NCBI GenBank assembly: GCA_032161105.1
Contig: JAVHTD010000031.1
DNA: 27,075 nucleotides
Reading direction: 5' to 3' (one strand)
From: Candidatus Thermosaccharophagus tengchongensis
GTDB lineage: Bacteria; Armatimonadota; Fervidibacteria; Fervidibacterales; Thermosaccharophagaceae
Below are positions 23,370-27,075 of this stretch, one piece after another. The first letter of the stretch is position 1; every line of letters starts with the position of its first letter. The position numbers and the translations under genes are program-made. The notes beneath the pieces are model-generated. The model saw nothing but the letters and a program-made list of their open reading frames with translations. It did no database searches and had not been told where the DNA came from.

Positions 23370-23517
23370 AAGTAGTGTGTTATGATAGTGCACTGCGCAA
23401 AGGGTGAATAGCGTAACGGGTGAACAAGATACTATCTGTTGCCCGCTTGAGTGTGGCTTCAGATGCAAACTTAACCCCAAAGATGAGTAAAGCTCGTTTT
23501 GGGTTTGCTGGGGTGAC

Positions 23518-23739
23518 ATGAAATTGGCTGCGAAGTTTTTTAACGCACTTCAGCGCCCGATAAACTTCATCAAGGAATCGTGGGAGGAGCTGAAGCGTGT
23601 CTCATGGCCTTCGTGGCATGAGACATGGACATTCACGAAGGTTGTGATCGCTATCATCGTAGCAGTGGGCGTATACATGGGTCTGCTTGATGCCTTCTTC
23701 GGATGGCTCATGCGTTCACTTGGGATTTACAGGTTTTAG
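23518..23739 (+). CDS. secE: Preprotein translocase subunit SecE
   Basis: FIKESWEELKRVSWPS motif followed by one TM helix with LLD; position between tRNA-Trp and nusG. Confidence 0.95.
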   Translation: MKLAAKFFNALQRPINFIKESWEELKRVSWPSWHETWTFTKVVIAIIVAVGVYMGLLDAFFGWLMRSLGIYRF

Positions 23740-23777
23740 AACCGCGAGCACCATAAGAGGGGAGTGCCCTCAAAGCC

Positions 23778-24305
23778 ATGCAGAAGAAGTGGTATGTTAT
23801 CCATGTGCTGACGAGTCATGAGGAAAGAGTGAAGCGCGCTATTGAGAAGCTTGTTGAGGCGAGGGAACTTTACGAAAAGATAGGGCGCGTCATCATACCA
23901 GTGGAGCGCGAGAAGCGCTCATATGGTGGCGCGCGTCAAGTTGAGCGCAAGCTTTTTCCGGGTTACATACTCGTTGAGATGGTCGCTGATGATGACACGC
24001 TTTATTTCATTCGGCGCATACCCGGTGTGACTGGCTTTGCCGGCTCGCAAACTAAGCCAACCCCACTGCGCGACCAAGAGGTTGAAACGATACTGAAGAT
24101 CGCCGGCGAGGAAGTGCCCAGGCGAAAAAGCATTTGGCATAAGGGTGAGAAGGTTAGAGTGCACTCTGGTCCATTTGAGGGCGCTGAAGGGATCATTGAG
24201 GAAGTCAACCAGCAGAAGCAAACCCTAACCGTAATGCTTTCGCTGTTTGGTCGTGACACACCAGTTGAGCTTGATTTCTCGCAGGTTGAAAAGGTTGAGG
24301 AGTAA
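23778..24305 (+). CDS. nusG: Transcription termination/antitermination factor NusG
   Basis: KWYVIHV, KLFPGYILVEM, PGVTGFAG, KOW motif GEKVRVHSGPFEG, LFGRDTPVELDFSQVEK. Confidence 0.97.
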   Translation: MQKKWYVIHVLTSHEERVKRAIEKLVEARELYEKIGRVIIPVEREKRSYGGARQVERKLFPGYILVEMVADDDTLYFIRRIPGVTGFAGSQTKPTPLRDQEVETILKIAGEEVPRRKSIWHKGEKVRVHSGPFEGAEGIIEEVNQQKQTLTVMLSLFGRDTPVELDFSQVEKVEE

Positions 24306-24315
24306 GGCGGTGCAT

Positions 24316-24344
24316 TTTACATTGGAGAGCAGTTACGGCATAAT
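24316..24344 (+). promoter_or_regulatory. Candidate sigma70-type promoter of rplK-rplA(-rplJL)
   Basis: TTTACA (24316-24321), 17 nt, CATAAT (24339-24344); same -35 hexamer as the rpmG promoter candidate. Confidence 0.55.
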
Positions 24345-24427
24345 GATGATTTTGACTGCGCCAAGATGGACGGGCGCCCTTAATCAACGATTCTGCAGCA
24401 CGGCTGATTGAGAGGGGAAGGATAGCT

Positions 24428-24853
24428 GTGGCAAAGAAAGTCGTTGCGGTCGTTAAGCTGCAGCTGCCAGCAGGGAAAGCAATGCCGGGACCGCCTGTAG
24501 GTCCAACACTTGCGCCGCATGGGATAGATGTCATGGGTTTCGTTAAGGCGTTTAATGAACAGACTGCATCTCAAGTTGGGACAATCATCCCAGTTGAGGT
24601 CACGATCTATTCGGACAGGTCATTCACATTTGTGTGCAAGCGTCCACCTGTATCGTTTCTCCTGAAGCAAGCAGCCGGGATTGAAAAGGGCTCTGGTGCT
24701 CCAAGGCGGGAAATCGTCGGGAAGATAACGAGGGAGCAAGTTCGCCAGATCGCTGAATACAAGCTTCCCGACTTGAACACGAATGACATAGAAGCTGCCA
24801 TGCGCATCGTTGAAGGAACGGCAAAGAGTATGGGCATTGAGATAGTGGACTGA
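24428..24853 (+). CDS. rplK: 50S ribosomal protein L11
   Basis: [49 protein letters not shown] start. Confidence 0.98.
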
Positions 24854-24976
24854 CCCTCCATTGGATGTCCCTTCATTGACATCCTGCAAAGGTGATTCTG
24901 CGTGGGTGAACGCTTTGCGAAAAATTTTGCGCCATCAGGAGCAGGGAGAAAAATCGCAATTCCTGATGGAGGGAGT
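24854..24976 (+). promoter_or_regulatory. Structured rplK-rplA intergenic RNA, candidate translational coupling/autoregulatory element
   Basis: Hairpins GGATGTC/GACATCC (24863-24884) and CCATCAGGA/TCCTGATGG (24932-24969). CCCTCCAT (24854-24861) is complementary to ATGGAGGG (24966-24973), which covers the rplA SD. Confidence 0.45.
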
Positions 24977-24984
24977 ATGTTGAG

Positions 24985-25683
24985 ATGGCGAAAAGAGGGA
25001 AGCGATACAGAGCGCTGATTGAAAGGTATGAGCGTAATCAGCTGTATGACCCTATGCAGGCGATTGAGCTCGTTAAGAAGTTGGCTACAGCTAAGTTTGA
25101 TGAGACGATTGATGTCGCATTCACTCTGAACATTGACCCGAGGAAAAGCGATCAAAGGGTAAGGGGCTCAATTACCCTTCCGCATGGGACTGGGCGTTCG
25201 CCAGTTATTGCAGTCATTGCGAAAGGTGAACAAGCCCGTGAAGCTGAGCAAGCTGGCGCTGATTATGTTGGTGCCGAGGATTTGGTTAAGCGGATTGAGG
25301 ATGGATGGAAGGACTTTGATTACCTTGTAGCCACTCCGGATATGATGCGCATAGTTTCGCGGCTCGGAAGGAAACTCGGTCCAAAGATGCCAAGCACACG
25401 CACAGGCACTGTCACTCAGGATGTTAGGAGTGTGGTTGAGGAGCTTAAGCGCGGGCGAATTGACTTTAGAAGTGATCAAGGCGGCGTAGTGCATTCAGTG
25501 ATAGGTAAGGTTTCATTTGAGACGGAGAAGTTGGTTGAGAACTTTAAGGCGCTGCTTGACTCGTTGCTTAAGGCTCGTCCGGCTGGTGTCCGTGGACAGT
25601 TCATAAAGAGCATATCGTTGTCGCCTACAATGGGTCCGAGTGTTAAAGTTGATGTCCAAAAGGCGCTTGCGCTGCTCAGGTGA
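24985..25683 (+). CDS. rplA: 50S ribosomal protein L1
   Basis: AKFDETID, DQRVRG..LPHGTG, AGADYVGAEDL, ATPDMM, IGKVSF, SPTMGPSVK. Confidence 0.98.
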   Translation: MAKRGKRYRALIERYERNQLYDPMQAIELVKKLATAKFDETIDVAFTLNIDPRKSDQRVRGSITLPHGTGRSPVIAVIAKGEQAREAEQAGADYVGAEDLVKRIEDGWKDFDYLVATPDMMRIVSRLGRKLGPKMPSTRTGTVTQDVRSVVEELKRGRIDFRSDQGGVVHSVIGKVSFETEKLVENFKALLDSLLKARPAGVRGQFIKSISLSPTMGPSVKVDVQKALALLR

Positions 25684-25750
25684 TGAGGTTGAGATGTGAC
25701 GCCGAAGTGAGCAAGTTTTGAATGGGCGGTTAGCATTGGGGTGTTGTGCG

Positions 25751-26713
25751 ATGCCGAAGCCGCAAAAAGTTCGCATGGTCTCGGAACTTGTTGAGGAGTT
25801 GAGGAAGGCTTCCGGATGGGTGCTTGTCAATTACACCGGTATGTCTGCGGAGGATATGGGTTCACTGCGGATGGCGATGCGAGAAAAGAAGCTCAAGGTA
25901 AAGGTCATAAAGAACACGCTTTTCCTCAGGGCACTTAAGGAGGTCAATCTTAATGGCAAGCTTGCCGAATTTGTTGTCGGACCGTTGGCGCTAATCATCG
26001 GGTATGACGATGCAGTTGAAGTTGCAAGGGCAGTTGTCAAAGCTGAGGAGCAATATGAGCCGCTAACAATCAAAGGCGGTTGGATTGAGGGTTTGGTGTG
26101 CACTCCAGAGTTAGTGGCGGAGCTCTCAAAGTTGCCATCAAAGGCTGAGATGTTCGGCATGGTGGCGGGGGCGATAATTAGCCCTTTGCACGGTATAGGA
26201 ATGATGGTGCAATCGTTGCTATATGCAGTCACGGATGCTATTCGCCAAATAAGCGAAGGCATAGGGCAAATCCAGCAAAGCATAGCACAAGATGGAGGGG
26301 TGAGCACGATGGAAGTGTCGGAAAAGGTAAGGACGCTGTTTGAGGAGATAAAGGGGCTTACGCTCATTGAGGCAAAGCAACTTTATGAGCTCCTCAAGGA
26401 GGAATTTGGCATTGCCGCTGCGCCGGTAGTGGCTGCTGCAGCGCCGGCTGCAACAGTTGCAGCGCCGGCTGCGGAAGCTCAGGCTGCTGTGGCTGAGAAG
26501 ACAGAATTTGATGTCATATTGCAAGCCGTTGGCGAGCAGAAAATACAGGTCATCAAAGTCTTGCGTGAGATAATTCCAGGACTTGGCTTAAAGGAGGCAA
26601 AGGACCTTGTTGAGTCTGCCCCAAAGCCGATAAAGGAGGGCGTGTCAAAAGAGGAAGCACAGCAGATTAAGGAGAAGCTCGAAGCAGTTGGTGCAAAAGT
26701 GGAAATTAAGTGA
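25751..26713 (+). CDS. rplJ: 50S ribosomal protein L10 fused in frame to L7/L12 (320 aa; L10 part plus linker about 25751-26308)
   Basis: ATG 25751 after SD GGGGTG. L10 motifs NYTGMS..LR, KVIKNTL, GPLA, IKGG, LSKLPSK. No stop codon before the L12 coding sequence. Confidence 0.9.
26309..26713 (+). CDS. rplL: 50S ribosomal protein L7/L12 (134 aa), from an internal in-frame start
   Basis: SD GGAGGGGTG (26294-26302) 6 nt before ATG 26309. [20 protein letters not shown], Ala/Pro hinge, [41 protein letters not shown]. Confidence 0.92.
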
Positions 26714-27052
26714 TTGTTTATGCATATGTGGCAAAGGAGTAACTTTGAGAGGTATAATGAAAAGCATGGGCGGTTAAATGGCACATTGAAGTTTAAGACA
26801 ATGTGCCTAATGGGGGTCATGATGCCTCAGATGGTAGTGTCCTCATTTGAAGCCTTCAAAGTGAGCTGTGTTACCTTCAACTTCTCGCCTTTTTACAGCG
26901 TCTGGCGGGGGTGAAACCTCATTGTGTCACTTTCGCCGTATCTGCGGGCATGAAAATGCCATCCATTCCCGTGAGCGGCAGGTGCTGTGTTGGAGTTTTT
27001 CCGGCTCTTCTTGGCAAACATCCCATAAAACTTGCTGATGGAGGGGAAGCCT

Positions 27053-27075
27053 ATGCCTCTGGATGGCTTTCAGAA
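27053..27075 (+). CDS. Probable start of the next gene (MPLDGFQ...), truncated by the window; rpoB is expected here by synteny but cannot be verified
   Basis: SD GGAGGGG (27040-27046) 6 nt before ATG 27053. Confidence 0.3.

Follow-up and report, generated by a model that had tools for sequence, protein, structure and literature searches.

An in-frame rplJ-rplL fusion fixed across the class Fervidibacteria and predicted to yield both a covalent L10-L12 chain and free L12

In the hyperthermophilic bacterial class Fervidibacteria, the genes for the ribosomal stalk proteins L10 (uL10, rplJ) and L7/L12 (bL12, rplL) form one uninterrupted reading frame, inside which the Shine-Dalgarno (SD) sequence and ATG of rplL are retained. 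We analysed this fused gene in a 27,075-nt stretch of DNA from Candidatus Thermosaccharophagus tengchongensis (contig JAVHTD010000031.1 of assembly GCA_032161105.1), referred to below in its entirety as the window. The reading that we favor, with a probability of about three in four, is that the gene is translated into two nested products, a 34.5-kDa L10-L12 chain and a 14.3-kDa free L12, which would assemble on an L10 helix, alpha8, that offers three sites for L12 dimers. Textbooks describe the L10(L12)n stalk as separately encoded proteins held together non-covalently, in a 4:1 or 6:1 ratio set by differential translation of two cistrons. The fusion, which occurs in other genomes as well, is notable for its fixation in an entire class, one with a cultured representative.

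Results

A single reading frame encodes L10 and L12

The open reading frame (ORF) at the locus occupies 25718..26713 of the plus strand and encodes 331 amino acids from a TTG. We took the ATG at 25751 as the rplJ start, which fits the MPKP N-terminus conserved in relatives. A first-pass annotation of this DNA had described an L10 frame that lacks a stop and runs via a linker into a complete L7/L12. ORF translation, in which MEVSEK follows the linker, and matches to three Pfam domains bear this description out. Ribosomal_L10 (PF00466) covers residues 1-97 with 79.6 bits against a curated cut-off of 22.8, Ribosomal_L12_N (PF16320) residues 195-236 with 35.5 bits against 25, and Ribosomal_L12 (PF00542) residues 253-320 with 103.9 bits against 25.9. 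The L10 part matches solved L10 chains with an E value of 2e-21 and aligns to 7o5b_p and 1zav_A, and the L12 part aligns end to end with the solved bL12 chains 4v6f_DI and 1dd3_A.

A monomer model computed with AlphaFold2 (AF2) from a 47-sequence alignment has a mean predicted local distance difference test score (pLDDT) of 76.7. The L10 N-domain (residues 1-125) is modelled confidently and is followed by helix alpha8, a single helix of 41 residues (131-171). The linker region 171-190 has pLDDT < 50, and the L12 hinge (222-252) is predicted to be disordered ahead of the C-domain (253-320). The elements of the gene are as follows.

25738..25743, plus strand: weak SD-like GGGGTG, 7 nt 5' of the rplJ ATG at 25751; duplex with the 16S tail, -8.6 kcal/mol
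25751..26713, plus strand: fused rplJ-rplL ORF, 320 codons and TGA (26711-26713); predicted uL10-bL12 chain of 34,468 Da
25751..26125, plus strand: uL10 globular N-terminal domain, residues 1-125 (PF00466; AF2 pLDDT 90-97)
26141..26263, plus strand: uL10 helix alpha8, residues 131-171 (AF2 helix), the putative platform for dimers of the bL12 N-terminal domain
26264..26308, plus strand: linker, residues 172-186, predicted disordered; probably the former L10 C-terminal tail and former intergenic spacer
26294..26302, plus strand: internal SD GGAGGGGTG, which encodes Gly-Gly-Val
26309..26311, plus strand: internal ATG, the retained rplL start codon (Met187), ATG in 24/24 class genomes
26309..26713, plus strand: nested bL12 ORF, 134 codons and TGA; predicted free product of 14,300 Da
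26309..26413, plus strand: bL12 N-terminal dimerization and L10-binding domain, residues 187-221 (PF16320; AF2 helices 191-201 and 205-219)
26414..26506, plus strand: bL12 Ala/Pro-rich flexible hinge, residues 222-252 (AF2 pLDDT < 50)
26507..26710, plus strand: bL12 C-terminal factor-binding domain, residues 253-320 (PF00542, the single such match in the genome)

The fusion is fixed across the Fervidibacteria

The first-pass annotation had also pointed to five in-frame CAA or CAG codons in the linker (26246, 26267, 26273, 26276 and 26288), each one base away from a stop, and had cautioned that a recent stop loss or a consensus error might underlie the open frame. The five codons are as it stated, and they do lend some color to an assembly or consensus error, or to a very recent loss of a stop in one strain, as does a unitig break with a low-depth loose end at 26246-26275 in one metagenome run (X2). 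The caution nevertheless fails on two counts. A stop-free, full-length match is present in 24/24 genomes of the order, which is the whole class Fervidibacteria, at identities from 85% down to 42%; the same comparison answers the suggestion that related genomes be searched for single ORFs carrying both proteins. Moreover, the stretch recurs in 17 hot-spring metagenome runs from 11 studies, and contigs from two of these, X3 and X6, which come from different studies and span 25700-26800, are unchanged throughout 26240-26310, their differences being limited to positions 25765, 25768 and 26641. An artefact is barely credible against this evidence.

The genome itself (2.74 Mb, 97% complete) contains one L10/L12 locus and, genome-wide, one Ribosomal_L12 domain; neither protein matching nor a search with PF00542 revealed a separate rplL elsewhere in it. 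One of the 24 class genomes, G013, additionally has a 45-residue fragment at a contig end. Taken as genomic evidence, these comparisons indicate that the rplJ-rplL fusion is genuine, ancient, under selection and fixed in this hyperthermophilic class.

Two further observations concern the metagenomic material. The low-depth contig of run X2 has a depth of 3.25, where the main contigs reach 72-123. It has only a 30-nt piece of the linker in common with the window, beyond which its sequence is unrelated, and may represent a rare variant, a 30-mer repeat or a chimera. Contigs from an RNA library, X18, derived from a relative at about 95%, cover the L10 and L12 parts without bridging the junction and are mute on a single transcript or internal ends.

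An rplL initiation region is retained inside the coding sequence

In the window, GGAGGGGTG at 26294-26302 is followed by 6 nt, AGCACG, and then by the ATG at 26309-26311, and the strong SD that the first-pass annotation placed 6 nt ahead of the L12 start is accordingly present in the DNA. All 24 class genomes have GGAGG 7-10 nt 5' of an in-frame ATG at L12 residue 1. The organism's own 16S rRNA ends in GGATCACCTCCTT, a canonical anti-SD tail complementary to the internal SD. The predicted duplex of the internal SD with this tail has an energy of -12.8 kcal/mol in the window, compared with -8.6 kcal/mol at the rplJ start. Averaged over the 24 genomes, the predicted values are -12.3 kcal/mol for the internal site and -10.6 kcal/mol for the rplJ start; of the two, the internal SD is the stronger in 16 genomes and the weaker in 1, with a tie in the other 7. 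Ranked by duplex energy, the internal site falls among the top 1-5% of positions within each of the 24 genes. SDs of this type also precede neighboring genes: rplA carries GGAGGG 5' of its ATG, and other genes of the window likewise have GGAGG.

Codon usage points in the same direction. Aligned across the 20 family f2 genomes, the fused genes contain 82 columns in which a residue with a degenerate codon is invariant. The mean normalised codon entropy of these columns is 0.76, and the sole column among them with a single codon in all 20 genomes is the GGA that opens the GGAGG. GGA makes up 121 of the 571 glycine codons (21%) in these genes. The class genomes are kin rather than independent samples, and we attach no P-value to the conservation of the codon or of the SD. 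The linker, whose conservation the first-pass annotation had proposed to compare among relatives, is variable in sequence except for this Gly-Gly motif. Together, GGAGG and ATG in 24/24 genomes, the constraint on the GGA codon, the canonical anti-SD and the strength of SD pairing back the proposal of a retained internal start.

The same sequence might be read as a recoding site at which L10 synthesis ends before L12, yielding separate L10 and L12 proteins, for example by a +1 slip on GGG-G (26297-26300) onto TGA (26301-26303). In the window and its closest relative, a +1-frame TGA indeed comes right after GGA-GGG-G, with SD-like sequence just upstream. However, this holds for 2/24 genomes, and in the other 22 the positions of the first out-of-frame stops are scattered; an X-XXY-YYZ slippery heptamer occurs in 0/24 genomes (-75..+30 nt), and the site offers neither an in-frame stop nor an obvious hungry codon at which a ribosome would stall. 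We judge recoding to be very improbable, and the GGG-G-TGA arrangement at 26297-26303 is probably a product of chance.

Helix alpha8 and the stoichiometry of the predicted stalk

Helix alpha8 aligns without gaps to residues 134-171 of Thermotoga maritima L10 (1zav_A, up to 171 of 180). The alignment to Thermus thermophilus L10 (173 aa) extends as far as residue 148, and Bacillus subtilis L10 (166 aa) ends about 8-10 residues sooner. Among 20 relatives the helix is free of indels, and its length does not differ between relatives with and without the fusion. By these alignments, alpha8 is of the Thermotoga type in length. A longer L10 helix reportedly binds three L12 dimers and a shorter one two. 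We infer from the comparison that alpha8 keeps three L12 dimer sites and hence has room for six L12 N-domains per L10. With a helix of three-dimer length, a 1:1 fusion alone cannot supply six L12 N-domains, and free L12 would be needed.

The two nested products would meet this demand as follows. Because there is no stop between the ATG at 25751 and the TGA at 26711, translation from 25751 is predicted to make the L10-L12 chain of 34,468 Da. Ribosomes that initiate on the internal GGAGG (26294) and ATG (26309) would make the 14.3-kDa free bL12 in excess. The tethered bL12 N-domain, held on a disordered linker of about 15-19 residues, would pair with one free bL12 and dock on alpha8, and dimers of free bL12 would fill the other alpha8 sites. 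The resulting stalk would consist of one uL10-bL12 chain and five free bL12 molecules and would bear six factor-binding heads, one of them unable to dissociate. Expressed as a ratio, L12:L10 would equal 1 plus the rate of internal initiation.

If instead the fused precursor were the single product and were cut by a protease in the disordered linker, L10 and L12 would be released 1:1 and the internal SD and ATG would be relics. The predicted disorder (pLDDT < 50 over residues 171-190) and variable sequence of the linker would leave it accessible to a protease, and eukaryotic ubiquitin-ribosomal-protein fusion precursors are described as being cleaved. A 1:1 yield, however, cannot fill an alpha8 of conserved three-dimer length. 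A relic SD and ATG, moreover, would not be expected to survive intact in 24/24 genomes whose proteins are 42-50% identical, or to show synonymous constraint on GGA. We saw no conserved cleavage motif in the linker, which is variable apart from its Gly-Gly motif. We consider cleavage quite unlikely.

About equally unlikely, in our estimate, is that the fused chain stays intact and is the sole source of L12, with no free L12 and with one L12 head per ribosome or with pairing between ribosomes. It is true that translation from the rplJ start must read into L12, and that 14 of 120 fused proteins, belonging to lineages elsewhere, lack a methionine at the column of the L12 start. Against this, L12 N-domains bind L10 as dimers, so that a lone tethered domain would be partnerless; alpha8 is retained at full length; the conserved SD and ATG would be left unexplained; and the genome has no second rplL.

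The production of a fused chain together with free L12 is the reading that we prefer, and several points weigh against it. The 34.5-kDa and 14.3-kDa products are predictions from the DNA, and both the assignment of three sites to alpha8 and the proposed in-cis docking of the tethered domain draw on the comparison of lengths and on earlier structural work. Conservation of Gly-Gly and Met could in principle also serve the needs of the protein. Those same 14 fused proteins show that an internal ATG is not universal among fusions. Finally, relief of mRNA structure at the internal start is weak, with a mean z of +0.61 at 37 C and 6/24 genomes not above average; in the sliding-window scan of the 24 genes, the relief at 37 C was spread broadly about the internal start, the scan was uninformative at 75 C, and it does not count towards our reading.

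Loss of one stop codon as the probable origin of the fusion

Unfused relatives within the Armatimonadota suggest how the genes came to be joined. In the three genomes of family f15, the junction reads ...SAQSA-TAA-GGA-GGG-AGT-AAx-Axx-ATG, all of it in the frame of rplL, with the stop adjoining the SD. The records L057 and L090 have a junction of the same type (L090 may be the same record as L030). The corresponding junctions in the Fervidibacteria are (C/G)AA-GGA-GGG-TCT-CAA-ATG in family f2 and GAT-GGA-GGG-GTG-AGC-ACG-ATG in f1, the family of the window.

The ancestor may accordingly be pictured with an rplJ stop, TAA, that abutted the rplL SD (TAA-GGA-GGG) and shared the frame of the rplL ATG. 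Once this one stop was lost, rplJ and rplL would have been merged, with the rplL initiation region left intact, and the linker would be made of the old L10 tail and the old spacer. One base substitution turns TAA into CAA or GAA, and losing one stop codon is enough to explain the origin.

Fusions in other lineages

Among 401 Armatimonadota genomes, 389 had a match, and among the matches listed a stop-free, full-length one was found only in the 24 Fervidibacteria and in G024, G039 and G300. Long open frames had made G027, G030, G138 and G382 candidates for further fusions; these were rejected, as the fetched DNA has stops between the two genes.

Beyond this phylum, 116 of the 120 best matches among 5.8 billion proteins carry all three domains. 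A methionine stands at the aligned L12 start in 106 of the 120 fused proteins, and four of the other 14 have one within four residues. Of the 150 best representatives at 50% identity, 22 match over their full length in a single stretch, with sizes of 297-332 aa. Named sources of fused proteins are Nitrospirales, Aerophobetes (a UniRef 'Multifunctional fusion protein'), Dehalococcoidia/Chloroflexota, Bipolaricaulia and other Armatimonadota.

DNA was examined for loci retrieved with a Nitrospirales query, of which 80 were fetched and 77 were scorable, a sample biased towards the arrangement of one frame with stops. Ten of the 77 are fused, all from Nitrospirales or Nitrospiraceae, and all ten have a purine-rich SD of the GGAG type before an in-frame ATG (AAAGGAG in 6/10). 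L10 and L12 genes lie in one frame with stops between them at 60 loci and in different frames at 7. The unfused Thermodesulfovibrionia read GGAGG-AAT-TAA-ATG.

A tree of L10 plus L12 (39 rows) places the Fervidibacteria in one clade with support of 100/98 and the other fused lines apart from it, among unfused ones; it is built on a single short gene, is rooted at the midpoint and has several open forks. As judged from this tree, fusions arose independently in Nitrospirales, Aerophobetes, Chloroflexota and Bipolaricaulia. Since many bacteria keep the stop, SD and ATG in frame, the fused state is one stop-codon mutation away, which would explain repeated origins.

Two side observations arose from these searches. 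At four unfused loci from Thermodesulfovibrionia and related Nitrospirota (L046, L047, L051 and L053), rplJ ends in GGA-GGx-AAT-TAA and the ATG of rplL comes directly next in the same frame; the SD there lies within the rplJ coding sequence and one stop stands between the two proteins, one mutation from fusion. Seven proteins of 593-1066 aa (P0141, P0144, P0145, P0148, P0151, P0160 and P0180) have 5-8 distinct matches each to the L12 C-terminal domain; each appears to be a single chain of L12 C-domains in tandem.

Genomic context

Upstream of the fused gene, Pfam matches identify the following genes.

23778-24305, plus strand: nusG
24428-24853, plus strand: rplK
24985-25683, plus strand: rplA

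The spacer between rplA and rplJ (25684-25750) is only 67 nt long, and the contig ends 362 nt 3' of the fused gene. In an Rfam search of 23500-27075 at E values up to 1, neither an L10 leader nor any other family was matched close to the gene, the rplA-rplJ spacer included. A promoter scan of 25500-27075 found no sigma-70-like promoter, a result that is neutral for control at the level of translation.

Annotation and literature

The first-pass annotation knew of no described natural case. That statement is borne out by full-text searches, which found no paper on a natural L10-L12 fusion, and PMC13001810 contains 0 occurrences of 'fusion' or 'fused'. It does not hold in the sense of uniqueness, as other phyla have fused proteins, which databases have labelled automatically.

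Published annotation of the Fervidibacteria shows the fusion unnoticed. In the KEGG Orthology (KO) tables of Nou et al. 2024 (PMC11535203), exactly one of K02864 (L10) and K02935 (L7/L12) is assigned in 26/26 Fervidibacteria genomes and 13/13 Fervidibacteria species listed there, and the other Armatimonadota genomes listed all have both. Among the rows examined of the RefSeq-based RNA-seq table for strain PD1 in the same paper, there is an L7/L12 protein with L12 Pfam domains only, and no L10 row was found. Annotation pipelines split the fused gene or drop one half of it. One of the two proteins is called and its partner is scored as absent, which can distort marker-gene and completeness counts. 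A related instance was seen in Nitrospirales, where the cluster P0167 (90% identity) contains either a 312-aa fused protein or a 133-aa L7/L12 from the internal start, depending on the gene caller.

Discussion

The fused gene has much in common with the canonical stalk, uL10(bL12)4 or uL10(bL12)6, of E. coli, B. subtilis and T. maritima (1ZAV). The domains are those of the canonical proteins and the operon order is likewise rplK-rplA-rplJ-rplL. As in the canonical system, L12 has its own SD and ATG, and in 23/24 genomes that SD is at least as strong as that of rplJ. The difference is that rplJ and rplL are separate genes in the canonical arrangement, whereas here no stop intervenes, so that every L10 chain would bear one covalent L12 and the rplL initiation region lies inside coding sequence.

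The fusions of Nitrospirales, Aerophobetes, Chloroflexota and Bipolaricaulia share architecture and size (297-332 aa) with that of the Fervidibacteria; most keep a methionine at the L12 start, and the Nitrospirales DNA keeps AAAGGAG...ATG. They nevertheless appear to be of separate origin and differ in linker sequence (KGEGE-M as against GGS-x-M). The case of the Fervidibacteria is further distinguished by fixation across a whole class that includes a cultured hyperthermophile.

Two better-known systems offer partial analogies. Archaeal and eukaryotic P0 (uL10) bears its own C-terminal factor-binding tail, like that of P1/P2. P0 and the fused uL10-bL12 would be alike in placing one covalent factor-recruiting element on the stalk base besides the non-covalent dimers. 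Unlike the fused gene, however, that of P0 is not known to contain an internal start nested in its frame, and the tail of P0 is only a short peptide, where the fused chain ends in a whole stalk protein. Nor is the bL12 C-domain known to be homologous to the P-protein tail. The second analogy concerns translation. In E. coli, in-frame nested internal initiation gives two isoforms from infB (the forms of IF2), clpB and cheA, where an internal SD and start yield a shorter protein that is the C-terminal part of the long form. The layout here is the same, with the difference that the short form would be a complete, formerly independent protein that is needed in several-fold excess and binds the long form.

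The Fervidibacteria are hyperthermophiles of terrestrial springs, and F. sacchari grows at 65-87.5 C (PMC11535203). Fervidibacter sacchari PD1 is a cultured member of the fused class for which RNA-seq and proteomics exist. A whole class without a free-standing rplJ stop is a natural experiment that bears on whether covalent attachment of one L12 is permissible, on the setting of stoichiometry from a nested start, and on whether a tether aids stalk cohesion at 65-87.5 C. We lean, by a modest margin over even odds, towards the view that in mature ribosomes of the Fervidibacteria and, independently, of several further lineages, an L12 is permanently attached to the stalk base. Bacteria would on this account have converged on the P0 design of archaea and eukaryotes, and how often ribosomes initiate internally relative to the upstream start of the same ORF would determine the stoichiometry of their stalk.

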